From an uncultured Actinomycetota bacterium (lineage in GTDB: Bacteria; Actinomycetota; Acidimicrobiia; Spongiisociales; UBA5794), in contig CAWEEG010000030.1 of the NCBI GenBank assembly GCA_963808015.1, positions 25 through 64,024 on the forward strand: DNA of 64,000 nt, given 5' to 3'. Shown here piece by piece: positions 4,508-62,511 of the stretch; position 1 is the stretch's first letter; every line of letters starts with the position of its first letter. A program made the translations under genes and the position numbers. Under the pieces are notes generated by a model that had not been told where the DNA came from, made no database searches, and saw nothing but the letters and a program-made list of their open reading frames with translations.

Positions 4508-4509
4508 TG

Positions 4510-7364: not shown

Positions 7365-8143
7365 GCGACTACTTCTCGGTCGAACATCCGGTTCGGTTCG
7401 CACATCGCGGCAGTCGTGTGCTGTGGCCCGAGAACACCCTGTACGCGTTCGAGAGGGCGATTGAGGATCTGAGCTACCGCTACCTCGAGCTCGACGTGCG
7501 GCTCACTGCCGATCGCATCCCCGTCGTGTTTCACGACGCCACCCTCGACCGGACGACCGACGGTACCGGGAAGGTCGGCGACTACACGCTGGCCGACCTG
7601 AAGTCCATCGACGCTGCCTATCACTTCGGACCGGACGACGACTACCCGCTTCGCGGAACCGGCATCGGAATCTCGCCCCTTGAGGAGTTGTATCGCACCT
7701 GGCCCGATGTGCGGTTGAACGTCGACCTCAAGGGACCAGACCAGGAGTGGGCGGTTGCCGAGGTGATCCGCAAAGCCGACGCCGAGCACCGCACGCTCAT
7801 CGGCTCGTTCTACGACCGGCGGATCGCCCGCTTTCGCAGGATCACACAGGGGCGGGTCGCCGTTTCCGCAGGACCAACCGCCGCCACCGCGATGTGGAGT
7901 GCTTCGCGGGCAGGGCGAACAACCCGACGGAAGGTCCAGGCCTATCAGTTTCCGTTCAACTACCGCGGTTTCAAGATCGACGAGAAGTTGATCAACAGTG
8001 TGCACCGCGCCGGTGCACACATCCACTTGTGGACGGTGAACGAAGCAGATGACATGCGGCGGTTCCTCGATATGGGAGTCGACGGCATCGTCACCGATCG
8101 CCCCGATATACTGAACGAGGTAATGGGTGTCCATGGCCGTTGA
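7361..8143 (+). CDS. Glycerophosphodiester phosphodiesterase family protein
   Basis: N-terminal HRG, E..D and VVFHD motifs typical of the GDPD fold; 260 aa, intact; start overlaps the hutI stop. Confidence 0.75.
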   Translation: MSDYFSVEHPVRFAHRGSRVLWPENTLYAFERAIEDLSYRYLELDVRLTADRIPVVFHDATLDRTTDGTGKVGDYTLADLKSIDAAYHFGPDDDYPLRGTGIGISPLEELYRTWPDVRLNVDLKGPDQEWAVAEVIRKADAEHRTLIGSFYDRRIARFRRITQGRVAVSAGPTAATAMWSASRAGRTTRRKVQAYQFPFNYRGFKIDEKLINSVHRAGAHIHLWTVNEADDMRRFLDMGVDGIVTDRPDILNEVMGVHGR

Positions 8144-44195: not shown

Positions 44196-45903
44196 CGGCC
44201 TTCAAGCAGAAGCAGACCGGGTCAGCCCGGTTGACCGGCGCCTCTTCGGGGTAACCGAAGGGGTGCGCCGGTATCTGGGCGTGACGATCGCCCTCGGGCT
44301 TCTTTCCGCGCTTGCTGTGATCGCCGGCGCCTCGGTGCTCTCCGGAATTGTGAACCGGGTGTTCCTCGAGGGTGACGGGCCCGAGGATCTTGCGGACGCA
44401 CTTGTCATCCTCGCTGTGATCTACGCTGCCCGCGGCCTGTTCGAGTGGGCAAGGTCGGTCGCCGCCTACCGAACGGCAGCCGAGGTGAAACGCACGCTGC
44501 GCGACCAGGTCATGCGGGCGGTCCTGAGTCAGACCGCAAGGGGGCGTTCCGCCGGAAGTGGCGACCTTGCCATCGTCGCGTCGAGCGGGATCGACGCACT
44601 CGACGCCTACTTCTCTCGATACCTGCCGCAACTCGTCCTCGGAGCGCTGATCCCGCTTCTTGCGATCATCTGGGTGGCAACCATTGATCCGCTGACGGCC
44701 GTGATCATCGTCATCACGGTTCCCCTGATCCCGGTATTCATGATGCTCATCGGGAACTACTCGGACAGGGCGACACGCGCCAGGTGGCACACGATCGTGC
44801 GGCTCGGGGACGCTCTTGTCGAGACGCTCCGAGGCTTGCTCACCCTCGAGGTGTACCGAACAGGAGAGGGAAGACTCGATCGAATTCGGAAGCTGTCGGA
44901 CGAGTACCGCAAGCAGACGATGGCGACCCTGAGGATCGCGTTCCTATCGGCGTTCGTCCTCGAGCTTGTTGCGACCATGTCGGTTGCGGTGATTGCCGTG
45001 GCCGTCGGGCTCCGGGTTGTCAACGGCGACCTCGATTTTGAACCGGCGTTTGCGATCCTGATCCTGGCACCCGAGGTGTATGCGCCACTCCGAAAGGCCG
45101 GATCAGAGTTCCACGCCGCGATGGACGGAATGGAGGCTGCCCGCTCTGCCTTCGATGTGCTCGAGAGATCGCCCACAACCGTTGCGTTACGCCATCTGCC
45201 GCCACCGCCACGTGTCGCCGGGGCACCCCTCATCAACCTCTCGAGTGTGACCTATCGGTACCCCTCACCCGGTGAGGCTGAAGGGACCGTCGTACTCGAT
45301 GGCATCGATCTGCATGCCGCACCCGGTGAACGTCTTGCGATCGTTGGGCCCTCCGGAGCCGGCAAGTCCACGCTGCTCCGACTGATCCTGGGATTCGATC
45401 AGTCCAGTGGAGGCACTGTCGAAGTCGAAGGTGCCGCACTCAACTCCCTCGATCTCTCCGCCTGGCGCTCACGAATCGGGTGGGTGCAGCAAGAGCCGTT
45501 CCTCATCGCAGGCACCGTTCTCGAGAACGTGTGCCTCGGCGCGGCAGGATCGAGCAGCGATGACGCCGCGGCCGCCCTCGAACTCGTTGGAGCGACGGAC
45601 CTTGTACCGCGACTCGGCGAGGTCATCGGAGAACGCGGCGCAGGGCTGAGTCATGGGGAGCGGCGCATGGTGACGCTCGCGCGTGCCGTCGTCCGATCAC
45701 CCGACGTGCTCCTTCTCGACGAACCGACCGCCGGCATTGACAGCATGACGCAACTCAGGATCGCCGAGTCGTTCGAGCAGATTGCTGCAGGCCGCACCGT
45801 GCTGACCATTGCACACCAGCGTGTGCTGGTCGACCTCGCAGATCGCGTTGTCGGCATCGATCAAGGGCGCATCGTGACGCCGACGGCAGGGGGGTTGCGA
45901 TGA
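44173..45903 (+). CDS. cydD: ABC transporter (permease-ATPase) CydD
   Basis: Six-TM domain plus Walker A GPSGAGKST, signature LSHGERRM, Walker B LLLDEPTAG; overlaps the cydB end. Confidence 0.85.
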   Translation: MSQRPPTDGLQAEADRVSPVDRRLFGVTEGVRRYLGVTIALGLLSALAVIAGASVLSGIVNRVFLEGDGPEDLADALVILAVIYAARGLFEWARSVAAYRTAAEVKRTLRDQVMRAVLSQTARGRSAGSGDLAIVASSGIDALDAYFSRYLPQLVLGALIPLLAIIWVATIDPLTAVIIVITVPLIPVFMMLIGNYSDRATRARWHTIVRLGDALVETLRGLLTLEVYRTGEGRLDRIRKLSDEYRKQTMATLRIAFLSAFVLELVATMSVAVIAVAVGLRVVNGDLDFEPAFAILILAPEVYAPLRKAGSEFHAAMDGMEAARSAFDVLERSPTTVALRHLPPPPRVAGAPLINLSSVTYRYPSPGEAEGTVVLDGIDLHAAPGERLAIVGPSGAGKSTLLRLILGFDQSSGGTVEVEGAALNSLDLSAWRSRIGWVQQEPFLIAGTVLENVCLGAAGSSSDDAAAALELVGATDLVPRLGEVIGERGAGLSHGERRMVTLARAVVRSPDVLLLDEPTAGIDSMTQLRIAESFEQIAAGRTVLTIAHQRVLVDLADRVVGIDQGRIVTPTAGGLR

Positions 45904-47636
45904 GGGGGTTCATCCGCCTCGTGGAGTCACTCCGGGCCTACCCGGGGCGGTTTGTGGCCTCGATCGCCGCCGGTGCCGCATCGGTCGCGTCGTCGATCGG
46001 CCTGCTCACCGTCTCCGCTTATCTCATCTCCTCAGCGGCGCTGCGTCCGCCACTTCTCGATCTCACCGTCGCCATCGTCGGCGTACGGTTCTTCGGCATC
46101 GCTCGCGCCGTTTTCCGGTATCTGGAGCGCCTCGTCTCTCACGACCTGAGTCTCGACCTCCTCGCCGACCTGAGGTCGCGGATCGCCCGGGCAATCCATC
46201 GGCTGGGTCCTGCCGGAGTTGCATCGTTCCGAGCGGGAGACCTCGTCGGGCGCACCCTCGACGACGTCGACGAGATCCAGCACGTCTTCGTTCGGGTGAT
46301 CGCTCCTCCCCTGATCGCCATCGTCGTTGCTGTGCTCACGCTTCTCCTTGCTGTGCTCTGGCTGCCGGCGTCGGTTCCCACGATCCTCATCCCGCTCGTC
46401 GTGGCAGGTGTCCTGGTCCCCTGGGTCACCCAGCGGGCCGGCAACACTTCCGGTCGTGCCGTCGCGGGCGAACGAGGGCAGCTGATCGGTCGAACCGTCG
46501 AGACCATCGAGGGGGCACAGGCAATCGTCGCTCTCGGGGAGGAGGACCGGATGCTTGCCGCTGCCGACGAGGCGGCTGCGAGCATGGCGGCAGCCGAGCG
46601 CAGAACGGCGTGGCTTCACGGCTTCGGTGACGCGATGCATTCTGGCCCTGGTCGGGATTGCGCTCGTTGGAACGTTGTGGGTCGCGGCAGCCGCAGTGGA
46701 GGTCGGATCGCTCGACGGGGTGATGGTTGCCGTGCTCGCGATGCTCGCCATCACACCGTTCGAGGCGGTTGCGCCCCTCCCATCGGCCTTTGAGAGGCTC
46801 GGCCGTTCGCTCGGAGCCGCCGACCGGTTGTTCGAGGTCATCGAGGCGGAGTCGCCGACATCTCCGCCTGAACACCCTGTACCGATCCCCCCAAACGCAA
46901 CTCTGCGATGTTCAAGGGGCGGTCGTGACCGCAACGAGCGGACAGCGAATCCTCGGGCCGATCGATCTCACGGTCTGGCCGGGCGCACGGATCGGGATCG
47001 TCGGCGAGACCGGCGCCGGCAAGACCACGCTGGCGCATGTGATGTGCCGTTTCCGAGATCCCAACGAGGGAGTCGTCTCATTGGGCGGAGTTGATCTGCG
47101 CGACGCTAGATCCCGACGGACTCCGAGCCGTTGTTGGCTACGAGGACGATCGAGCGTTCCTCTTCCGAGGTTCGATCGCCGGCAACGTCCGAATCGGTGA
47201 TCGCGACGCCGTCGAATGACGACGTGAGTGCCGCTCTCGACCGGCGTCGGATTCGGCGAGTGGATCGATGAGCTTCCCGACGGTCTCGACTCCGACGTCG
47301 GCGAGGGTGGCGAGTTCGTATCAGGGGGTCAGCGTCGAAGGCTCGCCCTTGCTCGGGCCCTCCTGGCCGACTTCCCGATCCTGGTGCTCGATGAGCCCAT
47401 ATCCGGTCTCGATCCCGTGACCGCAGATGCCGTGATGGATGATCTGCTCGATGCCGGCGCGTGATCGCAGCCTCGTGCTGATCACCCACCGCCCGGTTGG
47501 CCTCGACCGCATGGACGAGATCATCGTGATGGGAGACGGCGAGATCCAGGCCAGGGGTACACACGAAGAGTTGCTGAAGACCAACGAGCGGTATGCCGGG
47601 ATGTGGGGGCTAGTAGCGAGTAGACCCGAGACTTGA
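45900..47636 (+). CDS. cydC: ABC transporter (permease-ATPase) CydC, broken by about 6 +1 frameshifts
   Basis: TM domain 45900-46680; Walker [10 protein letters not shown] (frame 46727); signature [15 protein letters not shown] and Walker [10 protein letters not shown] (frame 47228); H-loop region (frame 47439..47636). The stop TGA lies within the first unit of the downstream repeat. Confidence 0.75.
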
Positions 47637-47803
47637 GACCCGAGACTTGAGACCCGAGACTTGAGACCCGAGACTTGAGACCCGAGACTTGAGACCCGAG
47701 ACTTGAGACCCGAGACTTGAGACCCGAGACTTGAGACCCGAGTCTTGAGACCCGAGTCTTGAGACCCGAGTCTGTCTCGTGTCTAGCGTCTCGAGTCTCA
47801 TGT
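47624..47803. repeat. GAGAC-unit repeat element, locus B: about 10.5 tandem copies of cccgagacttgagac followed by an inverted segment tctcgtgtctagcgtctcgagtctc
   Basis: Read directly. Confidence 0.9.
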
Positions 47804-47855
47804 CGTGATAACGAGCCTCGCCCGCAGATGTTTCGGCACCCCTACCCTCTCTCTC

Positions 47856-48889
47856 ATGTCCCGTGTTGACTGGCCGCTTGCCGTTTCTGTTGCCGCGAGT
47901 GTGTCCGGGCGGTACCCGCTCGAGGACACCTACCACCAGACGCGCCTCGAACGCGATTTGCCCGACATGGTTGTGCGCGCTTCGGAGCTGGTGTCGGAGG
48001 AGACAGGACTCGTTGCACCGGGCCTCCCGGACGTGGCCGTGGTCGGTCGGACCGGGGTGGGTCGAGAACAACGTTGCATCTTTCGCAACACTGCTGGCGC
48101 CGGCCGAACAGCGGCTCGGATCTGCATCCGGGATTGGCGCAGCCGTCGCAGGGCGGATCATGGGAGCCGAGATGGGTGCCGTCCTTGGATTCCTCGCTCG
48201 TCGGGTTCTCGGCCAGTATGAGCTCGTGCTCCCAACGTCAGATGGCGAGTTCGGGGACACCGTTCTGTTCGTTGGGCCGAACCTTCTCAAGATGGAGCGA
48301 AACCACGCCTTCCGGCCGGACGAGTTCCGTTTCTGGGTTGCGCTGCACGAGTGCACCACCGGCTCCAATTCACCGGGGTTCCCTGGCTTCGCGGCTACTT
48401 CCTCGGCCTCGTTGAGGAATTGGTCGCCACCGCCAAGCCGGAAAGCGGGCAGATCCAACGGGTTGCTGCCCAACTCAGGGAAGCTGCCGCTGCCGGCGAG
48501 CCACTGATCGACGAATCCGGGATCTTCGGGGTATTCGCCACCCCGCAGCAGCGTGAAGTGATCGATCGCGTCCAAGCGCTGATGGCGCTCCTCGAGGGGC
48601 ACGGCCATGTTGTCATGGACCGAATCGGCAGCGCGAGAACTGGTTACCCAGGCCCGCATGTCGGCGGTGCTGAAAGCAAGACGTTCCGACAAGCGCACGG
48701 CGGCGTTGATGCGTCTGATCGGCCTCGAAATGAAGCTCCGCCAATACGAAATGGGCGAGAGGTTCATTAGCGGCGTCGAGGAACGGGCTTCATGGTCAAA
48801 CGCTCGACCTTGCGTGGGAGAGCCCTGAGGCGTTGCCGACCCTCGAAGAGATCGAAGCGCCCGACCTATGGCTGCAGCGGATCGCCTGA
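47856..48889 (+). CDS. Zinc-dependent metalloprotease (DUF2342 family), 3 or more frameshifts
   Basis: HExxH reconstructed across a frame junction (WVALHECT|HRLQF). C-terminus ...LDLAWESPEALPTLEEIEAPDLWLQRIA* lies in a third frame. Confidence 0.6.
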
Positions 48890-50185
48890 CACCCGACCAA
48901 CTCGTGTCAGAGGCGCACAAGCTCTTGCCGGAGAGCCCTCTCGTCGTTGCACTCGGGGGAGGCGCCGATTCAGCGGTCGCCGCGTGGGTCGCTGCGCAGC
49001 GCACTGCGAACCCGCGGCATCTTCGTCTCGTCATGGCCTCGACGGCTCGGCAGCGCTCGAAGAAGCCGCCGGCTGCACTCGGAACACACCTCGGCATCGG
49101 AGTCACGTTCGTCGACGCACCCGTGGATGCCGGACCGTCCCTCGAGTCGCGTGCCCGCGACGCTCGATGGAACGCCATCACATCTGCTGTTGCCGGAGAC
49201 GAAACGTGGTGACCGGACACACGCAGGACGACCAGGCCGAAACGGTGATGATGAACCTCATGCGCGGTTCGGGGAGCGCGGGAGTCGCCGGGATGCTGCG
49301 CAGTCGCCCAGGTGTGGTCCGCCCGCTGCTCGGGTTCTCCCGAGCAGCCGTCCGATCACTCGCAGAAGAACTCGGCCTGCCGTTCGTGGATGATCCGGCG
49401 AACGAAGACGACAGCTACCTCAGGAATCGCATCCGTCGGAACCTCCTCCCGGACCTCGAACGGACTATGCCACCGGAGTCCGCGCGCACACTCGCCCGCG
49501 CCGGCGCCCTGGCGGCAGCCGACGACAACCTGATTGAAGTCCTCACCGACGACATCCCTGTTGTTGGCGGATGCGCGAACCGTCTCCATCCCGATTGCTC
49601 CGCATTAGTCACGGCGCCGCAACCGATCGCGGCACGCAGCGTCCGCAGGGCACTGCGCAGACTTCTCGATCCGTACGCCGGATCCGAAGCCGACATCGAG
49701 GCGGTCCTCGATGTTGCCGCCGGCCGAACAGAGTCGGAAATGATCTCCGGCTCGCTCACCGTCGCGCGGGAGGGTCCGTTTGTTACGGTCGACTCAGGGC
49801 GACCCACCGAGGTGAACTCGATGCAAATCGCCATCTCGGTTCCAGCAGAGGTTCGGTTTGGGGAGCACATCGTGACGTTCGAGGACGTCGACGTGTCCCA
49901 GATCAGTCCGTATCTCGACCCTGCTCTTGGACCCGAAGGTATTTGGCGCCACGACGCTGGTCAGGGGGGTCGAACGAGGGAGATCGGATCGATATCGACG
50001 CGGGATCGAAGACTGTCAGAACCGTGCTCTCCGAGCGAGGAATCCCCGTGCGCAGCCGCTCCACTTGGCCGGTGGTGGTCGAGGGTGGCAGAATCGCTGC
50101 CATTGTCGGCATTCGCGCCGCACCGTGGACGCGGCCGACAACAAGACAAGCGGTCGCTATCCGATGGAAGCAGGAATCGCCGTGA
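48868..50185 (+). CDS. tilS: tRNA(Ile)-lysidine synthetase, 2 frameshifts
   Basis: PP-loop VVALGGGADSAV at the N-terminus; middle in frame 48792.. (QDDQAETVMMNLMRGSG); C-terminal domain in frame 49571..50185. Confidence 0.75.
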
Positions 50186-50703
50186 AGATTGGAAGAACCC
50201 TCGTATCCGCAGAGGAGATCGATGCGAAGCTCGCCGAGATGGGTGCAGCCATCACCCGCGACTACGAGGGGAAGAATCTCCTCATGGTCGCGATCCTCAA
50301 GGGTGCCTTCGTTGTGATGGCCGATCTTGCCCGCCACGTGGCGCTCCCGGTCGAGTTCGACTTCATGGCCGTCTCGTCCTACGGAGCGTCAACGAAGTCG
50401 TCCGGTGTCGTACGGATACTCAAGGACCTCGACGAAGAGATCGAGGGTCGCCATGTGTTGATCGTCGAGGACATCATCGATACCGGTCTGACCCTCCAGT
50501 ACCTGATCAAGAACCTGGAGGTGAGGAATCCGGCGTCGTTGAAGCTGGCGGCGCTGCTCATCAAGGACGGTATCGAGCGCCCGCCGCTCGAGGTGGCCTA
50601 CGAGGGATTCCACATCGGTCCCGAGTTCGTGATCGGCTACGGCCTCGACTTCGACGGCAAGTACCGAAACCTGCCGCACGTTGCGGTCGTCGACGAGGTG
50701 TAG
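50164..50703 (+). CDS. hpt: Hypoxanthine-guanine phosphoribosyltransferase
   Basis: PRPP-binding motif VLIVEDIIDTGLTL; 179 aa, intact. Confidence 0.9.
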   Translation: MEAGIAVKIGRTLVSAEEIDAKLAEMGAAITRDYEGKNLLMVAILKGAFVVMADLARHVALPVEFDFMAVSSYGASTKSSGVVRILKDLDEEIEGRHVLIVEDIIDTGLTLQYLIKNLEVRNPASLKLAALLIKDGIERPPLEVAYEGFHIGPEFVIGYGLDFDGKYRNLPHVAVVDEV

Positions 50704-50737
50704 GTCGCGTATCCAGTCACGGGGAATCGGCTGGTAG

Positions 50738-50880
50738 TTGAGACTTGAGACCCGAGACTTGAGACCCGAGACTCGAGACTTTCGTGTCCGAAGTCTCGGT
50801 ACTCTCGGGCCCAGCGCCGAGCACCATGCGAGACGACCCCACTCGAGTCTGGAGTCTCGTGTCTGTTGTCTGGTCTCGCT
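50738..50880. repeat. GAGAC-unit repeat element, locus C: direct units, central hairpin cgagactttcg/cgaagtctcg, inverted units
   Basis: Read directly; between hpt and ftsH. Confidence 0.85.
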
Positions 50881-50909
50881 GGGTGGCATAGAAGGCTCGT
50901 CGGCTTACC

Positions 50910-52865
50910 ATGCGGGGGCCCGAGATTGAGCCGAGGAGCAGCGTGAGCCGCACCGCACGAACCATCATGATCTATCTGGCCGTCATCTTCGTGGTGGTGA
51001 TGGCGGTCAACGTGTTCGTCAATCAATCGACGCAACCCCAAGAGCTCAGTCTCAACGAATTCAACGCCAAGCTCGCCGCCGGCGATATCGAGAATCCGGC
51101 GACGATCCGTGACCGTTCGAACGAGGTGACCGGGACTTATACCGACTCTTCCGGCGAGTCCGTCGAGTACATCATGAAGTATCCGGCCGAGTACTCGCCG
51201 ACGTTGACCGAAGACATTCTCAATGCAAACGTCGAAGCGGTTACCGACTCGCAGGAACCGTCGACTATTCCAGTGAGATCCTGAGCAATTTCTTCCCTAT
51301 GTGCTGCTCTTCGGAATCTTCATCTTCGTCATGCTGCAGCTCCAGGGCGGCGGGAACCGCGTCATGCAGTTCGGGAAGTCCAAGGCCAAACAGGTCACGA
51401 AGGACACCCCGAAGGTCACGTTCGATGATGTAGCCGGTGTTGACGAGGCGATCGAAGAACTCGACGAAATCAAGGAGTTCCTGCAGCAGCCGCAGAAGTT
51501 CCGAGCCATGGGGGCGAAGATCCCGAAGGGAGTGCTCCTCTACGGTCCTCCCGGCACCGGGAAGACTCTGCTTGCACGAGCGGTCGCAGGTGAAGCCGGT
51601 GTCCCGTTCTTCGCAATCTCAGGATCCGAGTTCGTAGAGATGTTCGTTGGCGTCGGAGCAAGCCGGGTTCGCGACCTCTTTGACCAGGCAAAGGCCAGCG
51701 CACCATCGATCGTGTTCATCGACGAGATCGATGCGGTCGGTCGCCATCGTGGCGCCGGTCTCGGCGGCGGGCATGACGAACGTGAGCAGACGCTCAACCA
51801 ATTGCTCGTCGAATTGGACGGTTTCGACGTCAAAGCCGGAGTGATCGTCATTGCTTCGACCAACCGACCGGACATCCTCGACCCTGCGTTGCTCCGCCCT
51901 GGCCGGTTCGACCGTCAGATCGTTGTCGATCGCCCCGACATCAAGGGTCGGGAGCAGATCCTCGAGGTGCATGCCAAGGGCAAGCCATACGACGACGACG
52001 TCAACATCAGCACTCTCGCACGCCAGACCCCCGGATTCACGGGCGCAGACCTCGCCAACCTCATCAACGAGTCGGCGCTGCTCGCAGCCAGGAGGGACAA
52101 GGCGAAGATCGGCATGTCCGAGCTCGAGGAGGCGATCGAGCGACGTCATCGCCGGCCCGGAGCGCAAGAGCCGCATCATGTCCGAGGAGGAGCGGAGGCT
52201 CACGGCCTACCACGAAGGAGGCCATGCCCTCGTCGGATACGCTCTCCCGAAGCTCGATCCGATTCACAAAGTCACGATCATTCCGCGCGGCCGTGCCGGC
52301 GGCTACACGATGGCGCTCCCGCTCGAAGACAAGCACTACGAGAAGCGCAGCGAACTCGTCGACCAACTGGCATATGCACTCGGCGGGCGGACGGCCGAGG
52401 AGATCGTGTTCGGAGACCCGTCGACCGGGGCATCGAACGACATCGAGAAGGCAACGAGCCTCGCCAGGAAGATGGTCATGGAATACGGCATGAGCGACCG
52501 TCTCGGGCCGCTCAAGTATGGGCAACCACAGGCCGAGGTCTTCCTGGGACGCGACTACGCGAAGAGCCAGGATCTGTCGAACGAGGTGGCTGCGGCCATC
52601 GACGACGAGGTCCGCAAGCTCATCACTCAGGCCCATGAGGAAGCGATGCAGATCATTGTGACGCATCGCGACGCTCTCGACCGGATCGCCGAGTATCTGC
52701 TTGAACACGAGACCGCAGACGCCGAAAGGGTGATCGAGATGTTCCACGACGTGCCGAAGTGGGAGCACTCGGACACAGGAGCACTCCGCATCAAGGGTCC
52801 AGAAGGTGCGGGCGACAACTGGTGGGATTGCCGCAGCCCAGACCGGCGGGCCCAGCGTCGGGTGA
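50910..52865 (+). CDS. ftsH: ATP-dependent zinc metalloprotease FtsH, 3 frameshifts
   Basis: N-terminal TM plus periplasmic region (frame 50910..51284); AAA module [22 protein letters not shown] and SRH (frame 51301..); HEGGH zinc site and C-terminal part (frame 51851..); Gly-rich tail and stop in a fourth frame at about 52863. Confidence 0.85.
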
Positions 52866-52866
52866 C

Positions 52867-53729
52867 TGTGACCATCAGCCCAATCACCTGGAACCTCGAG
52901 TCTCGTTCGCTCACGAACGCAGACCACACGCTTGTCATGGGAGTCGTGAACACGACACCCGACTCGTTCTCCGACGGCGGACAGTGGGCAGAACCACGCG
53001 CCGCGATCCGCCGAGGCTTCAAACTCTGGGACGACGGTGCCGACCTCGTCGACGTCGGCGGCGAATCCACACGACCTGGGGCGGAGCCGGTCAGCGTTGA
53101 GGAGGAGCTTGCACGCGTGGTGCCCGTTGTCGAAGCACTCGCATCACACGGGATCATCGTTTCGATCGACACGAGCAAGGTGGAAGTAGCAGCGGCCGCG
53201 GTGGCAGCCGGTGCTGAGATCGTCAACGACGTTACCGGCCTCACAGATCCCGACATGGCCAACCTCTGCGAAGAGACCGGTGTTGGCGTCGTCATCATGC
53301 ACATGCAAGGAGATCCCCGCTCGATGCAGGCCAACCCGACCTACGACAACGTTGTTGCCGACGTTGCAGCGGTTCCTTCGCGATCGCACGGCTGCGGCCA
53401 TCGAACGCGGAATCGAGGCCTCGCGGATCGTTGTTGATCCGGGAATCGGCTTCGGCAAGACGTTTGACCACAATCTCTCGTTGCTGAGGGGAATAGACGA
53501 GCTCGGGAACGGCCAGCCGGTTCTCGTCGGCACGTCGCGCAAGAGTTTCCTCGGATCAATCCTCGAGCAGGCCGGTCGGCCGTCTGAACCGGCCGATCGA
53601 GACACTGCGACTGCTGCAACGGTGGCCCTTGCGGTTGCCTCCGGAGCGGCAGTGGTGAGAGTCCACAACGCCGCCAGCGCCGTTGATGCTGCGAGAACAG
53701 CCGACGCTATCGTGCGAGTTCACGAGTGA
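52867..53729 (+). CDS. folP: Dihydropteroate synthase, 1 frameshift
   Basis: VMGVVNTTPDSFSDGG N-terminal signature; GTG 52867 is abutted by the ftsH stop at about 52863; C-terminal part in frame 53211..53729 (DPGIGFGKT). Confidence 0.8.
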
Positions 53730-53740
53730 GCATGGGGCAA

Positions 53741-54230
53741 TGATCAAGAAAGACGTTCCGGGACTTGAACCCCGTGGCATTTCGATGGGTGATCGCAGGC
53801 CGCCTTGCGGTGTCCGAACGCATCGGCGGGTCCGGGTTTCCAGCATCGCCGGGTCCGGCGCGAAGAGGAGATCACCTGGCTCCACGACCAGGGAATCAAC
53901 ACCGTCCTTTCGCTTCTGCCCGCCGGTCAGAACACGGCCGTGTATGAGGAGGCGGATTTTCGCGTCGTCGTGCATACCGTCGAAGGCACCCCGACCGAGA
54001 TCGATGACGTGGATGGTGTGTTCGCTGCGATGGACGAGGCAATCAACGTCCGCGGAGCATCAGTGCTCTTCCACCGCGATACGATCGACGAAACCGTCAG
54101 TGGCCTGCTCGCCGGCTACCTCGTTCATTCCGGTTTGGTGACGGATCCGATCATCGCCACGTCGGTGATTCAGGAAATCCTCGGGCGGCCTCTCGGTCCT
54201 GAGGGACGCGGGCTCATCCCGGTCCAGTGA
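53741..54230 (+). CDS. Dual-specificity-phosphatase-fold protein in place of folB; 2 or more frameshifts
   Basis: Collinear with DSP/PTP-fold proteins (...FRWVIAGRLAVSERIGG, EEITWLHDQGINTVLSLL, GASVLFH..., SGLLAGYLVHSGLV...). The P-loop reads FHRDTIDETVSG in the main frame, while a canonical CX5R(S/T) (HQCSSTAIRST) is present in the +1 frame at the same position. Confidence 0.45.
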
Positions 54231-54737
54231 GTCGCTGCGCGGTTGGAGTCGGATCCAATCTTGGAGACCGGATCGAGCATCTCAGGGCGGCGGTCGGCGG
54301 CCTTTCATCGGTTTCACGTATCGCAGCAGTTTCTTCGGTGTATGAGACCGCGCCGATTGGTGGTCCCGATCAGGGCCCGTTTCTCAACGCCGTTGTGCGT
54401 GATCGATACGGCGCAGACACCCCGCGGCCTGCTTCGCGAACTCCTCGTGATCGAACGCTCGCGTGGGCGGGTTCGCGACACACAGCTGGGGTCCTAGGAC
54501 GCTCGATCTGGATCTAATTCTCTGGGATCGCTGGACGATCTCAGAGCCCGGCCTCACGATCCCACACCCTCGAATGCTCGACCGCAGGTTTGTCCTCGAG
54601 CCGCTTCTCGAAGCTTGGCCCGAAGCTCGAATGCCCGACGGCTCGTGCCATCGCACCGTCGTCAGAAGCGGTTGGAGCGGCAAGATCTCGAACGAGTCGA
54701 AGCAGCCCTCGACGGTGCCGAGCGTGACGGGACGTAG
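54227..54737 (+). CDS. folK: HPPK (2-amino-4-hydroxy-6-hydroxymethyldihydropteridine pyrophosphokinase), 2-3 frameshifts
   Basis: [11 protein letters not shown] and [11 protein letters not shown]...FLNAVV in the first frame; [13 protein letters not shown] and [16 protein letters not shown] in another frame; plausible C-terminus ...[16 protein letters not shown] in a third frame. Confidence 0.75.
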
Positions 54738-54799
54738 TACGTTTGGTTCGAACGAGCCCCGAGGCGGGGCCGGACCGATACCGGGAGGATCGGAGCCAT

Positions 54800-55642
54800 A
54801 TGCGGATCGTCCTCGTGGGACCCGGGCGGGCCGGTCAGTCCGTCGCAATTGCAGCAAACGGCGCAGGCCATGAGGTCGTTGCCGTCGCTGCACGTGATAC
54901 CGAACAGGCATACGGTGTCGCACGGCAACTGGACGCGGGCGTCCTTGCCATCGGTGAACCGATTCCCCGCCGTCGACCTCATCATCATTGCGGTTCGCGA
55001 TCACGCGATCGAAGAGGTCGCGGGTCAGGTTGCACCGGTTGCCCGGAACGCCGCAGCGAGCGCGGTCCACCTCTCGGGAGCGACCCCCGTAGCGGCGCTG
55101 GCACCGTTCGCTGCGCAAGGGATTGCCACTCGGGTCGCTTCATCCTCTCCAGACCATGCCAACTCCCGATCAAGGCGCCCGATCGCTCGCCGGATCGTGG
55201 ATGGCGGTGACGGCCGATGAGCCGCTGCGGTCGGAGCTTCACTCTTTCGCGGCGTCGCTCGGAGGGATTCCGTTCGACCTTCGCGATGCGGATCGGACCA
55301 CGTACCACGCCGCCGCGGCTGCGGCTGCGAACTTCCCGACAGCGGCGTTTGCAATTGCCCAACGCCTTCTCGAGTCGACGGGCGTGCCGTTCGACGCTGT
55401 GCGTCCGCTCGTCGACCGGATCGTGGCGAATGCCTTCGAACTCGGTCCTCGTGCGTCGCTCACCGGACCGATCGCGCGAGGTGACGTTGACACGATCGAA
55501 GCCCAGGTCGACGCCGTTCGCTCGTACGGCTCCAGATCTTGCGGCCGCCTTCGAGGCCATGGTGAGCGCAACGGCGGACGTCGCAACTTCCCGAATGACG
55601 AGGGTGAGGTATGAGGACCGTCGCAGACGTTCGCAGACGTGA
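54800..55642 (+). CDS. Rossmann-fold / DUF2520-type oxidoreductase-like protein, 3 frameshifts
   Basis: [12 protein letters not shown] dinucleotide-binding start; conserved central and C-terminal blocks spread over frames 54743.., 54849.., 55123.. and 55217.. Confidence 0.55.
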
Positions 55643-56510
55643 GGGTGCTGGGCCGCGGATGTGTTGGATTCGTTCCAACCATGGGCTACCTCCATGAGGG
55701 CCACCTCAGCCTGATCGACGCTGCCAGGCGCGAGTGCGACACCGTGGTGGTCAGCCTCTTCGTCAACCCGCTTCAGTTCGGTCCGAACGAGGATCTGGCG
55801 TCGTATCCGCGAGATCTCGACCGTGACGCTGCCCTCGTCGAGGCGGCAGGAGCCGACGTGCTCTTCGCACCACCGCTCGATGTGATGTACCCGAGTGAGC
55901 CGCTCACGACGGTCACGGTGGGGGAGGTGACCGAGGGAATGGAGGGCGCGCGCCGGCCGGGACACTTCGACGGGGTCGCCACCGTGGTGGCGAAGCTCTT
56001 CGCAGGTGTTGCTCCAGATCGCTCCTACTTCGGTCGCAAGGATGCCCAGCAGCTCGTGACCGTCCGCCGCATGGTGCAGGACCTGTCGTTCCCGACAGTC
56101 GATTGTCGGAGCTCCGATCGTCCGCGAGGCCGACGGTCTCGCCCTCTCATCCAGGAACATCTTCCTCGACTCTCGCCAGCGTGACGCTGCACGTTCGATC
56201 AGCCGGGGGCTGTTCGCCGCGGCCGCGGCCGTGACGGCGGGGGAGTGGTCGGGCCCGCGGGATCGAGAGAATCGCGTCGATAGCGGTGGAGGAAGAAGCC
56301 GACATCGACCTCGACTACGCAACACTCGCCGACCAGGACACGGCGGCACCCGTCGCATCCTTGGAGCGACCTGCCTTCCTCGCCGTCGCGGCGCGTGTCG
56401 GATCAACACGGCTTCTCGACAACATCCACATCGATCAATACGAAGACGGTTGGCTGCCCGACCTAGGCACTCGACTCCGCGAACCCTCAATTCTCTACAG
56501 GGAGGCCTGA
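55607..56510 (+). CDS. panC: Pantoate-beta-alanine ligase, 3 or more frameshifts
   Basis: HxGH motif [10 protein letters not shown]; FGRKDAQQ; C-terminal ...[15 protein letters not shown]... in two other frames. Confidence 0.75.
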
Positions 56511-57280
56511 TGCTGCTCACCATCGACGTTGGAAACACCCAAGTCGCCATCGGCCTGTTCCGAGATGACGAATTGGTCGGTCATTGGAGATTCTCGACCA
56601 AGGAGCAAACGTCCGATGAGATGCGGTGGGAGCTGCTCGGTGTTCTCGCTCTTGACGGATTCACGCCGAACGACATCGGTGGTGTTGCGGTTTCGAGCGT
56701 CGTGCCGTCGATCACCGCCACCATGCGCAATGTTGCACCGGCGCTGTCGCACGGCCCGGTCCTCGTCATCGGTCCCGGCATCAAGACCGGCATGTCAATC
56801 CAGATCGACAACCCGAGGGAGGTCGGCGCCGACCGGGTCGTCAATGCGGTCGCAGCGCGGGAGCAATATGGCAGTCCGGCCATCGTGGTCGACTTCGGGA
56901 CGTCGACGAACTTCGATGTTGTCGGGCCCGACGGCGCCTACATCGGCGGAGTGATCGCTCCGGGTCTCGAGATCTCAACGCGGGCGCTGATATCCGGGAC
57001 TGCTGCGCTCCGCAGAGTTGAGTTCGTCCCGCCGCGGTCGCCGATCGGAAAGGGAACGGTCGAAGCGATCCAGAGTGGGGCCCTGTATGGGCATGCCGGC
57101 CTCGTAGATGGGATCCTCGGCCGTCTCGTCGACGAAGTCGGAGAGACAACCACCGTTGTCGCCACCGGCGGACTCGCACCTACCATCGTTCCGTACTGCC
57201 GCAACGTCGAGATCGTGGACGAGTACCTGACCCTCGACGGTCTGCGGATGATCTTCGACCGGAATCAGGAAGACCAATGA
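56510..57280 (+). CDS. coaX: Type III pantothenate kinase
   Basis: [18 protein letters not shown]-terminus; acetate/sugar-kinase fold motifs (VDFGTSTNFD, ATGG); intact. Confidence 0.85.
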   Translation: MLLTIDVGNTQVAIGLFRDDELVGHWRFSTKEQTSDEMRWELLGVLALDGFTPNDIGGVAVSSVVPSITATMRNVAPALSHGPVLVIGPGIKTGMSIQIDNPREVGADRVVNAVAAREQYGSPAIVVDFGTSTNFDVVGPDGAYIGGVIAPGLEISTRALISGTAALRRVEFVPPRSPIGKGTVEAIQSGALYGHAGLVDGILGRLVDEVGETTTVVATGGLAPTIVPYCRNVEIVDEYLTLDGLRMIFDRNQEDQ

Positions 57281-58770
57281 CGGACGACACCACGAGCGCC
57301 CAGAGCCCACAGGACGATCCGCTCGTTGCGGCGCGCATTGAGAAACACCGGAAGGTGGTTGCTGCAGGGGGGTATCCGACACGGTTCGACCGCACCGACC
57401 TCGCATCGGAACTCCACGACCGCTACGTCGACCTCGAACCCGGCGCCGAGACCGGAGTCGAGGCTACGGTCGCCGGGCGGCTCATGAACGTGCGCGACAT
57501 GGGGAAACTCGCATTCGGCGTGCTCCAGGACGTATCCGGGAGAATCCAGCTGTTCGTGAGCGTGTCGGTGCTCGGAGCGGACGGTTTTGAGGACTTCCTC
57601 GACCTCGACGCAGGCGACTGGATCGGCGCCACCGGGGAGATCATTGCGACGAAGAAGGGTGAACTCAGCGTCCGCGTATCGTCGGTGACACTCCTGTCGA
57701 AGGCGCTCCGTCCATTGCCGGAGAAGTGGCATGGGCTCAAGGACGTCGAGGCTCGATCGCGGCAGCGGTACGTCGACCTGATGGTCAACGCCGATTCGAG
57801 GAAGACGGCGCTCGTTCGAGCGAAGGTGGTCTCCGAACTCCGCCGGCAATTCGAGGACCGCGGGTTCATCGAGGTCGAGACGCCCGTTCTACTCACGCAG
57901 GCGACGGGCGCGACCGCGCGACCGTTCGAGACCCATCACAACGCCCTCGACCTCGATCTCTCGCTCCGGATCGCCACAGAGTTGTTCTTGAAGAGGCTCG
58001 TCGTCGGCGGCATCGAGCGGGTGTTTGAGATTGGCCGGATCTTCCGGAACGAGGGTGTTGACGCCACGCACAATCCAGAGTTCACGATGCTCGAGGCGTA
58101 TCAAGCGTTCGCCGACTACGAGGATGTCATGGCTCTCATCGAGGCCGTGTTCTCCGGCGTCGCCGTTGCCGCCGCGGGTACGTCGACACTGACCTACCAG
58201 GGGCGGCACCTCGACCTTTCGCCTCCATTCCGAAGGGCACGCCTCGTGGACCTCGTGTCCGAAGCGGTGGGGGAGGAGGTTTCCCTCGCAACGTCACCGG
58301 TTCGTCTTGCTGAGATTGCCGCCACGCGTGGTGTGGACATCGAGGAGTCGTGGGGCCCCGGGCGGGTTGTCTTCGAGTTGTACGAGGAACTCGCTGAAGA
58401 CGGAATCTGGGAACCAACCTTCGTGACCGACTATCCGAAGGAAGTCTCACCGCTCGCTCGATCGAGTCGCGACAATCCCGAGATCACGGAGCGGTTCGAA
58501 TTGGTGATCGCAGGCGCCGAGTACGCCAACGCGTTCTCAGAGCTGAACGATCCGTTCGATCAGCGGGAACGTTTCGAGGTGCAAGCCGCGGCGCGAGCAG
58601 CAGGTGATGATGAAGCGCACCCGGTTGACGAGGACTACCTCAGGGCGCTCGAGTATGGCCTGCCACCGACCGGAGGCCTCGGCATCGGCGTCGACCGCCT
58701 CGTGATGCTCCTCACCGACCGCAAACACATCCGGGAAGTGATCCTCTTCCCAACAATGAGGCCGGAGTGA
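57277..58770 (+). CDS. lysS: Lysyl-tRNA synthetase (class II)
   Basis: Class II motifs 1-3 (e.g. FRNEG, GLGIGVDRLVMLLT); 497 aa, intact. Confidence 0.9.
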   Translation: MTDDTTSAQSPQDDPLVAARIEKHRKVVAAGGYPTRFDRTDLASELHDRYVDLEPGAETGVEATVAGRLMNVRDMGKLAFGVLQDVSGRIQLFVSVSVLGADGFEDFLDLDAGDWIGATGEIIATKKGELSVRVSSVTLLSKALRPLPEKWHGLKDVEARSRQRYVDLMVNADSRKTALVRAKVVSELRRQFEDRGFIEVETPVLLTQATGATARPFETHHNALDLDLSLRIATELFLKRLVVGGIERVFEIGRIFRNEGVDATHNPEFTMLEAYQAFADYEDVMALIEAVFSGVAVAAAGTSTLTYQGRHLDLSPPFRRARLVDLVSEAVGEEVSLATSPVRLAEIAATRGVDIEESWGPGRVVFELYEELAEDGIWEPTFVTDYPKEVSPLARSSRDNPEITERFELVIAGAEYANAFSELNDPFDQRERFEVQAAARAAGDDEAHPVDEDYLRALEYGLPPTGGLGIGVDRLVMLLTDRKHIREVILFPTMRPE

Positions 58771-58843
58771 CCCGAGACCTGAGACACGAGACATGAGGCA
58801 CAGGTACGTGTCTGGCGTCTCGGGTCTAGCGTCTCGGGTCTGC
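58771..58843. repeat. GAGAC-unit repeat element, locus D: direct units cccgagacctgagacacgagac then inverted gtgtctggcgtctcgggtctagcgtctcgggtc; between convergent lysS and polyprenyl synthase
   Basis: Read directly; the lysS stop TGA abuts the first unit. Confidence 0.85.
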
Positions 58844-58847
58844 CTAC

Positions 58848-59787
58848 TCATCTTCTTGCTGCTTCTACTCGGTCGAGGATGTAGGAATCGAGGTTGCGGA
58901 GGACCGGTCGCAGCGAGCTGTCGGGGATTCGATCGGAGGCGCGTTCCGCCAGGGCCATGTGGGTCATGGCCTCGTCGATGACTTGGTCGACGAAACCTCC
59001 GGACGCGGTGAGTTCGATAACCCGATCGATAACCGCACGGTCGGTGGGGGCACCGTTGGAGAGGAGATCTCGAATCTCAGAACCATGCGGACCGTCCGCG
59101 GCGTACAGCACCGGCAGGGTGTAGACACCCTCTCCGATGTCCGAGCCCGCGGGCTTCCCGAGGAACTCGTCGTCGGCGATCAGGTCGAGAACGTCGTCGG
59201 TCATCTGGAACACGAGACCCATCTCCCAGGCCCATTCGCTGATCGCATCAACCGTCTCGGTGTCGGCGCCGGCGGTCAGCGCGCCGAGCCTGGCCGATGT
59301 TCGAATCAGGCTGGCGGTCTTGCCGCCGATCACCCGGAAGTAGCCGTCGGCGCCATGGTCGAGACCGGTGGCAAAACGCAGCTCGGCGATCTGCCCTTCG
59401 CAGAGACGAGCGTAGGTTTGGGCGATGAGGGCGACGGCTTCTTCGCCGAGCGGGGCCGCAACCTCGGATGCCCGTGCGAGCAAGAAGTCTCCTGCCAGGA
59501 TCGCGATCGTGTTCGACCAGTTCTCGTTCACCGAAACCTCGCCGCGGCGCGACTCAGCTTCATCGATGACATCGTCGTGATAGAGAGATCCGACGTGAAC
59601 CAACTCGACGGAGACGCCGGCTTCAACGGGTCCGCCGCCGTTGCTGGGGCCGAACTCCGCGGCGACCTGCGCGAGCAAGGGCCGATAACGTTTCCCGCCG
59701 GCCCGAAGCAGGTGTTGGGCGATGTCCGTGAGGAATTCGTCGTCCGATTCTGTGACTTCGAGCAGGCGCCGCTCTACCGCTTCCATG
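58848..59787 (-). CDS. Polyprenyl diphosphate synthase (trans-isoprenyl transferase)
   Basis: FARM LYHDDVIDEAESRRG and SARM MTDDVLD aspartate-rich motifs; 313 aa. Confidence 0.85.
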
Positions 59788-60003
59788 CGTTCCCACACAC
59801 GGGGGACGGGCACGAGATCGCTGAGAATTGGCCGATCCACTGGTCTCCAAGAGCTGTCGGGAATTCGGATGGTACCCCTGGTGTTTGCAGAACCATGAGC
59901 CGGAACGTCCGGTTTGACAACCCGGGTCTTACCGACACCCCGTCCTATACTCGATGAGGCGCTCGGGGAACCCGGCGCCATCGTTACATCATGAGGTAGT
60001 GCC

Positions 60004-62511
60004 TTGTTCGAACGGTTTACCGATAGGGCCCGCAGGGTCGTAGTCCTCGCCCAAGAAGAGGCGCGGCTGCTCAACCACAACTACATCGGGACGGAGCACA
60101 TCCTCCTTGGCCTGATCCACGAAGGTGAAGGTGTCGCAGCCCGCGCGCTCGAGAGTATGGGGATCAGCCTCGAGTCGGTGCGCAGCCAGGTTGTCGAGAT
60201 CATCGGCCAGGGATCACAAGCCCCGAGCGGTCACATTCCGTTCACCCCCCGCGCCAAGAAGGTCCTCGAGCTGTCGTTGCGCGAAGCGCTGCAGCTCGGA
60301 CACAACTACATCGGCACGGAGCACATCCTCCTCGGCCTCATCCGCGAGGGTGAGGGTGTCGCCGCCCAGGTGCTCCAGCAGCTCGGCGCCGACCTGCACA
60401 AGGTGCGCCAGACGGTGATCCAGCTTCTCTCCGGTGTCCAGGGTGAAGAGGCGGCGCCCGCCGGTCATCCCGGTGGAAGCGGTCGCGCAGAGTCGACCGG
60501 GGCCTCGAGCAGTGGCTCAACCGTGCTCGACCAGTTCGGGCGGAACCTCACCCAACTCGCACGTGATCGGAAACTCGACCCGGTGATCGGGCGCTCCACG
60601 GAGATCGAGCGCGTCATGCAGGTTCTGTCCCGTAGGACGAAGAACAACCCGGTTCTGATCGGCGAACCGGGTGTCGGCAAGACGGCCATTGTGGAAGGGC
60701 TTGCTCAGAAGATTGTGGACGGCAACGTTCCGGACACGCTCACCGACAAACACCTCTACACCCTGGATCTGGGTGCACTCGTCGCCGGCTCTCGCTACCG
60801 CGGCGACTTCGAAGAACGCCTGAAGAAGGTTCTCAAAGAGATCCGGACTCGCGGCGACATCATCCTGTTCATCGATGAGATCCACACGCTCGTCGGCGCG
60901 GGCGCCGCCGAGGGGGCGATCGACGCAGCGAGCATCCTCAAGCCGATGTTGGCCAGGGGAGAGCTCCAGACGGTCGGGGCAACCACGCTCGAGGAATACC
61001 GCAAGTACCTCGAGAAGGACTCGGCTCTCGAACGGCGGTTCCAGCCCATCCAGGTGGAGGAGCCGACCGTCGCCGACACCATCAAGATCCTCGAAGGCCT
61101 TCGAGATTCCTACGAGGACCATCACCGTGTGCGGTTCACCGACCAGTCGCTCGTCAACGCAGCGAATCTCGCCGATCGCTATATCGCCGACCGGTTCCTT
61201 CCCGACAAGGCCATCGACCTGATCGACGAGGCCGGCAGCCGGATGCGCCTGAAGCGCAAAGACCTTCCCCTCGACGTTCGCGACATCGACGAGCAGATCT
61301 CGAAGTTGCGTGGAGACAAGCGCGACGCCGTCTACGCCCAGCAATACGAGCGGGCCGCCAAGATCCGGGACCAAGAACGCGTGCTGATGGATGAACGCTC
61401 TGAGTTCGAGACGCAGGGCACGGCGATCGGCGAGGACTACTCGGCGGTCATCGATGAGGAGCAGATCGCCGAGGTGCTGGCTCAGTGGACGGGGATTCCG
61501 GTTCACCGCCTCACCGAAGAAGAGACCGAGCGGCTACTCAAGATGGAGGACGAACTCCACAAGCGCATCGTCGGCCAGCACGACGCGATCGAAGCGGTCT
61601 CGAAGGCAATCCGCCGCACCCGTGCCGGGTTGAAGGATCCGAAACGTCCAGCCGGGTCGTTCATCTTCCTCGGGCCATCGGGCGTCGGGAAGACCGAATC
61701 GGCGAAGGCGCTCACCAGCTTCTTGTTCGGCGACGAGGACGCACTGATCCAGATCGACATGTCGGAGTACATGGAGAAGCACGCGGTGAGCCGCCTCGTC
61801 GGTTCACCTCCCGGCTACGTCGGCTACGACGAGGGTGGGCAGCTCACCGAAGCCGTGAGGCGCAAGCCGTTCTCGGTGGTCCTCTTCGACGAGATCGAGA
61901 AGGCCCATCAGGACGTATTCAACATCCTGCTGCAGATCCTCGAAGACGGTCGACTGACCGATTCGCAAGGGCGTACGGTCGACTTCAAGAACACCGTCAT
62001 CATCATGACGTCGAATCTCGGGACGGCCGATCTCCGCAAGAAGGCAATCGGGTTCACCACCGACGACGAAGAGGTCAACTACGACCGCATGCGCGAGCGG
62101 GTCGTTGAATCGCTGAAGAAGCACTTCCGACCTGAGTTCCTGAACCGGATCGACGAAGTGATCGTCTTCCACGAACTCACGAAGGAAGAGGTCAAGACCA
62201 TCGTCGACCTCCTTATCGCTCGGGTGCGAACGCAGCTCGAGTCGCAGGCGATCGATCTGGCCCTCTCGGATGCGGCGAAGACCCGTCTGGCCGAGAAGGG
62301 CTACGACCCGCAGTTGGGGGCACGTCCATTGCGGCGTGCGATCCAGCGCCTGCTCGAGGATCCGCTCTCAGAGCGGGTGCTCCATCGTGAGTTCCCCGCC
62401 GGCTCGACGGTTCTCGTCGACATCGACGAAGAAGACGACGAACGTCTCTCCTTCGTATCGATCGAGACCCCGGACCAACCCCCGGTGGAACTCGCCGACA
62501 ACGAGCGGTAG
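60004..62511 (+). CDS. clpC: ATP-dependent Clp protease ATP-binding subunit ClpC
   Basis: Double Clp-N repeat; two AAA modules ([15 protein letters not shown]; GPSGVGKTE); UVR-like linker; 835 aa, intact. Confidence 0.95.

Follow-up and report, generated by a model that had tools for sequence, protein, structure and literature searches.

The dephosphorylation of 7,8-dihydroneopterin triphosphate (DHNTP) in folate biosynthesis is a step without an assigned gene in most bacteria, and FolQ/NudB and the FolQ2 candidates would fill this step between FolE and FolB (PMC1971073). These proteins, of the Nudix and HDIG type respectively, are tied to folate gene clusters. Here we describe another gene tied to folate gene clusters (tentatively referred to as gene X), which lies between folP and folK at positions 53740-54230, forward strand, of a 64,000-nucleotide stretch of DNA from an uncultured bacterium of the class Acidimicrobiia (contig CAWEEG010000030.1; the whole stretch that was analysed is referred to as the window). 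In actinobacteria, the canonical folate block, ftsH-folE-folP-folB-folK (e.g., Rv3610c-Rv3606c in M. tuberculosis), has the same flanking genes as the X loci, from tilS, hpt, and ftsH through to folK, DUF2520, panC, coaX, and lysS. The Acidimicrobiia differ from it by an additional gene, X, which follows folP and precedes folB, and the clade of the window furthermore lacks folE and folB at this site. X and FolQ/NudB have unrelated folds, as X has no Nudix Pfam match and is instead predicted to have a dual-specificity phosphatase (DSP) fold, and X, in contrast to FolQ/NudB, persists in operons without folE and folB. We tentatively suggest that X is a remodelled DSP-fold protein without the catalytic Cys that acts on, or simply binds, phosphorylated pterins.

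Two groups of proteins with the fold of the protein tyrosine phosphatase (PTP) superfamily are comparable to X. The DUSP23/VHZ-like DSPs (25xa, 4erc, and 2img) have the same fold and size, and share with X an N-terminal "F-x-W-V-x-x-x-x-L-A-G/V-S", a "PGG-x-G", and an "AGYL" helix after the phosphate-binding loop (P-loop). Unlike them, X has no nucleophilic Cys, does not conserve the P-loop Arg or, judging from the sequence alignment, the general-acid Asp, has an acidic P-loop and a 6-residue HR-x-VRR insert, and is found in a folate context instead of signalling. STYX and MK-STYX/STYXL1 have lost the catalytic Cys from the PTP/DSP fold, as X has, and such pseudophosphatases act by binding rather than by hydrolysis (PMC2873733, PMC8622459). 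However, STYX-type proteins are eukaryotic signalling proteins that have mostly kept their P-loop (one or two residues differ), whereas X is a bacterial single-domain protein encoded in a metabolic operon, and its whole pocket appears to be rebuilt and is its most conserved part.

In the raw window, gene X is broken into three overlapping open reading frame (ORF) pieces in three frames (53.7-54.2 kb). Joined across two frameshifts, these pieces give a 162-aa protein consisting of MIKKDVPGL, NPVAFRWVIAGRLAVSERIGGSGF, and QHRRVRREEE...LIPVQ in that order, the coordinates of the gene being mapped from the gene calls of two related loci (L003 and L004). The gap list of a blastn comparison with L003 places an extra T relative to the intact orthologue at 53775 and another, within a T-run, at 53837 (both forward strand), and deleting both 1-nt insertions leaves gene X open as a 162-aa ORF. 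Along its full length (100%), the repaired protein shows 95% identity to P0001, an intact 162-aa metagenomic protein, and the window and the P0001 locus (L003) are about 89% identical at the nucleotide level. The ORF that an initial reading of the letters without database searches (referred to below as the sequence-only reading) had placed between folP and folK is therefore real, starting one base earlier, at 53740, and encoding 162 rather than 160 aa. That reading had also described it as translationally coupled to both neighbours. On the folK side, the X stop and the GTG start of folK overlap in a GTGA (54227-54230), while on the other side the X ATG is 10 nt past the folP stop (53727-53729), so that X nearly abuts folP without overlapping it.

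We searched a collection of 5.8 billion proteins for homologs of X and found 1,482 at E<=1e-3, typically 157-162 aa long. Wherever they are named, the name is "hypothetical protein," and no precomputed Pfam domain is assigned to any of them. When the family profile was run against 1.84 billion cluster representatives (50% identity), 381 clusters were recovered, of which 241 reached E<=1e-10, and a scan of one genome per GTDB species found X in at least 592 genomes. Almost all of the X-bearing genomes carry the label Acidimicrobiia, Acidimicrobiales, Microthrixaceae, Iamiaceae, or Actinomycetota, and the few odd taxon labels probably stem from mis-binned contigs. Neither the repaired X of the window nor its two raw frames had any Pfam or NCBIfam match, even at E<=10. 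Among 31 diverse family members, no Pfam DSP model was matched at its gathering score, and four had sub-threshold matches to DSP families (E 0.006-0.024). Likewise, the family was not described in the literature that our searches covered, nor was a curated model for it found. The X family is thus an unannotated family that is conserved class-wide in Acidimicrobiia, and X is a real gene that has been passed on by vertical descent in this class; its class-wide conserved position makes an unrelated insertion, which the sequence-only reading had also considered, unlikely.

An AlphaFold2 model of X, built on a 50-sequence alignment, has a mean predicted local distance difference test score (pLDDT) of 89.2 and a predicted template modelling (TM) score of 0.86, and its only weak stretch is residues 31-40 (mean pLDDT 60). 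The predicted order of secondary structure elements is beta-beta-alpha-beta-alpha-beta-alpha-beta-alpha-alpha-alpha. In a Foldseek search against the PDB, the top 50 matches all belong to the PTP superfamily and are mostly DSPs (probability 1.00, TM 0.6-0.7), including DUSP23/VHZ (4erc and 2img; E 2e-7, TM 0.66). Other matches are DUSP26, a baculovirus RNA 5'-phosphatase, KAP, Cdc14, DUF442, and the pseudophosphatase STYX (2r0b). At the sequence level, the profile of the X family matches one of the PDB sequences, 25xa (E 3e-13), which is listed as a "dual specificity protein phosphatase family protein." The model and these matches bear out the DSP/PTP-like fold proposed in the sequence-only reading, as Foldseek returned for the reconstructed protein a phosphatase fold rather than any other. 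X is thus predicted to have the DSP fold of the PTP superfamily, and because the structural matches are joined by the profile match to 25xa, its relationship to the DSPs is one of homology rather than mere analogy.

Despite this shared fold, the catalytic residues are gone. A gapless alignment to the HCRAGYGRTG of 25xa places the P-loop-equivalent of the window X at H111-R-D-T-I-D-E-T-V-S-G121 (54072-54104, forward strand), an acidic loop that has Arg in place of the Cys and Thr in place of the P-loop Arg. The main frame of the P-loop region (54060-54104), VLFHRDTIDETVSG, is the conserved sequence of the family, with an in-frame consensus of H-x-[DE]-x-x-[DG]-[DE]-x-x-x-G. Counted over about 200-258 family sequences, the His before the nucleophile (position 111) is present in 207 of 210, and the Cys-equivalent position 112 is occupied by R (142), G (15), Q (14), H (12), A (7), or M (4), and never by Cys (0 of 209). 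Acidic residues prevail in the rest of the loop, with D or E in 198/207 at position 113, D (145) or G (38) at position 116, and D or E in 196/198 at position 117. The equivalent of the P-loop Arg (position 118) is T in 95 sequences (48%) and R in 33 (17%), V, A, L, and Q also being found, and the loop ends in a G at position 121 in 195/198. In the sequence alignment, no Asp is conserved in the loop after beta4, where the general acid would be expected; positions 78-92 are variable and E/D-rich there. As far as these sequences tell, X cannot act as a Cys-thiophosphate phosphatase. The expectation of a probably active enzyme therefore fails for the Cys type, since the Cys is absent throughout the family and usually the Arg as well; no catalytic Cys appears in the corrected sequence of the window X, which has Arg at that position.

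The most conserved part of X is S/C25-E26-R27-x-G29-G30-x-G32-x-x-H35-R36-[RK]-V38-R39-R40-x-E42-E43-I-x-W46-L47. The signature E26-L47 within it (53816-53882, forward strand) is invariant or nearly so in 251-258 sequences, spans the loop between beta2 and alpha1 as well as the beginning of helix 1, and holds the HR-x-VRR insert that is absent from 25xa, the nearest true DSP. It also contains the least confident part of the model (residues 31-40). The invariant residues of X are G29, G30, H35, R36, R39, R40, E42, E43, W46, N64, Y68, H111, and G121, and R149, G152, and R156 are further conserved. As the loops after beta2, beta3, and beta5 line one crevice in the DSP topology, the conserved residues of the modelled X probably surround the former active site. 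Judging from the pattern of conservation, the pocket, being more conserved than the rest of the protein, appears to have been rebuilt rather than to have decayed.

An active site could alternatively be hidden by sequence errors. The sequence-only reading took the P-loop to be unreadable in the main frame through local indels, with a canonical CX5R(S/T) motif in the +1 frame marking a probably active Cys-based phosphatase. Such a motif is indeed present, as CSSTAIRS (CX5RS) can be read off the sequence in the +1 frame, untranslated, at 54064-54087 on the forward strand. However, blastn of the window against L003 shows no indel in the P-loop-equivalent segment (54060-54104), orthologues 95% identical to the window X read through it, and the in-frame HRDTIDETVSG is conserved across the family. 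CSSTAIRS derives from conserved in-frame codons, with GTG-CTC giving an off-frame TGC and GAT-ACG-ATC-GAC an off-frame CGA-TCG. Among 86 orthologous X genes, CX5R[ST] occurs off frame somewhere in 34 and within 6 residues of the P-loop-equivalent in 18, but in frame in none. As there is no indel at the site, and the motif is frequent off frame and absent in frame, the idea of a hidden active site is refuted. It was rejected on the intact frame, the family frequencies, and the off-frame counts, and has next to no chance of being right, CSSTAIRS being, on these counts, a by-product of composition.

For the operon context, FtsH, FolE, FolP, X, FolB, FolK, and DUF2520 from a complete Acidimicrobiia chromosome (OZ246890.1, locus L022) were used as tblastn queries against 85 X loci and the window. 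About 60 of the 85 loci, including L022 and those of Microthrixaceae and Iamiaceae, have the order ftsH-folE-folP-X-folB-folK-DUF2520. In about 22 loci (the window, L001-L012, L014-L018, L020, and L023) the order is ftsH-folP-X-folK, and tblastn detected neither folE nor folB in the 8-10 kb to each side. With Acidimicrobiia FolE and FolB as queries, neither gene was found anywhere in the 64-kb window, in agreement with their absence from the operon as noted in the sequence-only reading. The direct abutment of ftsH and folP was also correctly recognized there, as the ftsH stop and the folP start overlap in a GTGA (52862-52865). Pfam-labelled gene tables confirm ftsH-folP-X-folK in the 95% relatives and in a relative with 66% identity (on a 2.23-Mb contig). 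X directly follows folP in nearly all of the 85 loci, including those where both flanks have suffered deletions. The ancestral operon is ftsH-folE-folP-X-folB-folK, from which the lineage of the window deleted folE and folB, and X is an additional, class-specific member of the folate operon that normally precedes folB. To say that X occupies the folB position is accordingly misleading, given that X lies between folP and folB in most relatives.

In a neighbor-joining tree of X, which is indicative only, the loci without folE and folB fall in two or three groups, with L013, L019, and L021, which have both genes, nested between them. This branching order suggests that folE and folB were jointly lost repeatedly, while X, folP, and folK were always kept. 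Among the best 120 matches listed, no FolB or FolE homolog was found on the large contigs of the clade (2,229,536, 755,278, 379,616, 296,184, and 176,919 bp). A crude six-frame regular-expression search of the window and the loci for the PTPS/QueD zinc motif (C..HGH) gave only matches in non-coding frames.

Some gene calls in protein databases join X to Pterin_bind, FolB, or HPPK. In several cases the match to X is only partial, and the contig of origin has a high GC content and genes that overlap; the joined calls are evidence of adjacency and may represent read-through rather than true fusion. In one metagenome-assembled genome (MAG), X and folB are separated by an insertion of about 1.7 kb (L079, 2867-5341).

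Fusions of FolK itself were also observed. FolK (HPPK) is fused to a C-terminal double-hotdog, acyl-CoA-thioesterase-like domain of ~270 aa (4HBT_3/4HBT_3C/4HBT) in L012 (6876-8216), L015 (8486-9805), L016 (2404-3744), L018 (6252-7595), and L020 (6199-7530). This fusion occurs in one of the lineages without folE and folB, exactly where folB is missing, and its partner domain is unexplained. In L013 (8895-9947) and L019 (8834-9778), the nearest relatives that still have folE and folB, FolK is instead fused to a C-terminal membrane methyltransferase domain of the PEMT/ICMT type.

Our favoured reading, to which we give a probability of about 0.4, is that X, remodelled and devoid of the Cys, uses its DSP fold to bind or process a phosphorylated pterin at the steps of FolK and FolP. 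The classical catalytic apparatus of the fold has been replaced in X. The Cys is never present, the P-loop has turned into the acidic H-x-[DE]-x-x-[DG]-[DE], with the P-loop Arg and, as far as the alignment shows, the general-acid Asp no longer conserved, and the Arg/His/Glu-rich insert GG-x-G-x-x-HR-x-VRR-x-EE has been gained in the beta2-alpha1 loop beside the P-loop. Arg36, Arg39, and Arg40, together with His, Asp, and Glu residues, suggest that a phosphorylated ligand is bound, possibly with a metal. The remodelled pocket most likely binds a phosphorylated dihydropterin, with Arg36, Arg39, and Arg40 gripping the (pyro)phosphate, while the pterin or a metal would be held by carboxylates and aromatic side chains. 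Pterin sites are usually built from carboxylates and aromatic residues. X may then bind, protect, or hand over 6-hydroxymethyl-dihydropterin pyrophosphate between the FolK and FolP steps, or may alternatively clear off-pathway phospho-pterins. We tie this role to FolK and FolP because X stays with folK and folP after the loss of folE and folB, and we infer that X is under strong selection for a function in the pterin branch.

Several points weigh against this proposal. The clustering of the invariant residues at the old active site is deduced from the DSP topology, and with conserved Arg residues beside it, the acidic His/Asp/Glu loop might just as well form a hydrolytic site that depends on a metal. 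The tree of X is that of a 160-aa protein and is not robust. If folE and folB, or substitutes such as folE2 and PTPS-III, are present elsewhere in the genome, the argument against a DHNTP phosphatase is largely gone. In addition, in the MAG contig L037 of an Acidimicrobiia bacterium, an intact X (6881-7429) directly follows tilS and precedes mutM/fpg, whereas hpt, ftsH, and the fol genes are all missing from its surroundings, from which it follows that co-transcription of X with the fol genes is not obligatory; this contig has masked N stretches, and rearrangement and scaffolding artefact are indistinguishable in it.

The most obvious rival, which we consider possible yet doubtful, is that X is the missing DHNTP (pyro)phosphatase, a Cys-independent and probably metal-dependent functional analogue of FolQ/NudB, in which Mg2+ or Mn2+ would be coordinated by the His/Asp/Glu loop and the triphosphate held by Arg36, Arg39, and Arg40. 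The ancestral place of X inside folE-folP-X-folB-folK, its descent from a phosphate-binding fold, and the acidic, His, and Arg nature of its conserved residues would all suit such an enzyme. However, X is kept and strongly conserved in the about 22 operons without folE and folB, which seem to belong to more than one lineage. This weakens the role, as without FolE there is no DHNTP. A PTPS-III-type bypass uses DHNTP directly and needs no phosphatase either. Further, the P-loop Arg that normally holds the phosphate is not conserved in X, and we know of no precedent for a Cys-less hydrolase with a PTP fold. The DHNTP phosphatase role survives only if folE and folB were relocated, and we prefer a role at the FolK/FolP steps because a DHNTP phosphatase would be useless without folE and folB or with a PTPS-III bypass, yet X is intact in every locus of this kind.

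X may also have a role unrelated to pterins, as a regulatory pseudophosphatase that binds a protein or nucleic acid via its Arg-rich helix and merely travels with this conserved block of housekeeping genes, which we regard as rather unlikely. Eukaryotic pseudophosphatases are known as scaffolds and regulators (PMC2873733, PMC8622459), X stands apart from the fol genes in L037, and its most conserved segment is flexible (low pLDDT) and rich in Arg and Glu, as is typical of partner binding. In contrast, the position after folP is kept in nearly all of the 85 loci despite deletions on both sides, and the stop and start codons of X overlap those of fol genes. Non-orthologous replacement of FolB, the dihydroneopterin aldolase, by X could be suspected from the window, in which X is found at the folB site of other actinobacteria. 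This candidate was rejected, as X has no PF02152 match, has a DSP fold rather than a T-fold, and is itself followed, in about 60 loci, by a gene for a true FolB immediately downstream; its probability is minimal. All readings beyond the FolK/FolP role, the DHNTP phosphatase, and the regulatory or binding role together have only a slim chance.

Genes around X in the window are frameshifted as well. On the forward strand, upstream are ftsH (50910-52865), with no folE between it and folP (mapping and repair against L003, and tblastn), and folP (52862-53729), which encodes dihydropteroate synthase (Pterin_bind in the orthologue, repair, and tblastn). Downstream are folK (54227-54737; HPPK Pfam match in the orthologues, and mapping) and a DUF2520 Rossmann-like gene (54800-55614), followed by panC, coaX, and lysS (mapping and gene tables). 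The genes panC, coaX, and lysS form a conserved downstream block, and the reading frames were restored with L003 as the guide. Class-wide, a DUF2520/Rossmann-like gene is found between folK and panC, where it connects the folate and pantothenate blocks.

Between ~45.3 and 58.8 kb, the window has dozens of 1-nt differences from L003, which are mostly insertions and mostly outside homopolymers. This run of indels (~45300-58780) frameshifts tilS, hpt, ftsH, folP, X, folK, DUF2520, and panC, and looks like a local problem of assembly or consensus quality. The two frameshifts within X and the dozens among its neighbours could instead point to a genome in decay, with the X of the window as a true pseudogene. 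However, the density of 1-nt insertions is the same in the essential genes ftsH, tilS, folP, panC, and coaX, the neighbouring 3.5 kb (58858-62375, the clpB/clpC region) is gap-free relative to L003, and indels aside, identity to intact relatives is about 89% in nucleotides and 95% in protein. A pseudogene is therefore very unlikely. Because essential genes are struck at the same rate as X, the two X frameshifts are best read, by comparison of the aligned sequences, as assembly or sequencing errors and not as decay.

Other features of the window were noted in passing. A 14-nt tandem repeat, AGACCCGAGACTTG, is present in 10.6 copies (99% match) in an intergenic region before the tilS region (47622-47770), within a stretch that does not align to L003, and a short related array of about 3 copies is found just upstream of ftsH (50738-50781). 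According to the ORF translations and the L003 gene table, the window also contains a histidine-utilisation-like cluster (~3000-7400) and genes for a cytochrome bd oxidase (cydAB) and a cydDC-type ABC transporter (~41.7-47.6 kb), both of which are unrelated to folate.

Taken with its family, X is a candidate, at about even odds, for a new functional class within the PTP/DSP fold that is dedicated to folate synthesis, either a metal-dependent phospho-dihydropterin hydrolase or a non-catalytic subunit that captures the labile 6-hydroxymethyl-dihydropterin pyrophosphate and passes it between FolK and FolP. It would be a rare bacterial phosphatase fold that appears to have been rebuilt after losing its cysteine chemistry, and so bears on how pseudoenzymes gain functions. 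The FolK/FolP steps are the target of sulfonamides, and an extra conserved, unannotated gene in this drug-targeted pathway would represent a new enzyme solution or an accessory factor of FolK/FolP. The repeated loss of folE and folB suggests that some environmental Acidimicrobiia depend on pterin intermediates or use an alternative early pathway. If the metal-dependent hydrolase version is true, X would supply the long-missing DHNTP phosphatase step in Acidimicrobiia.

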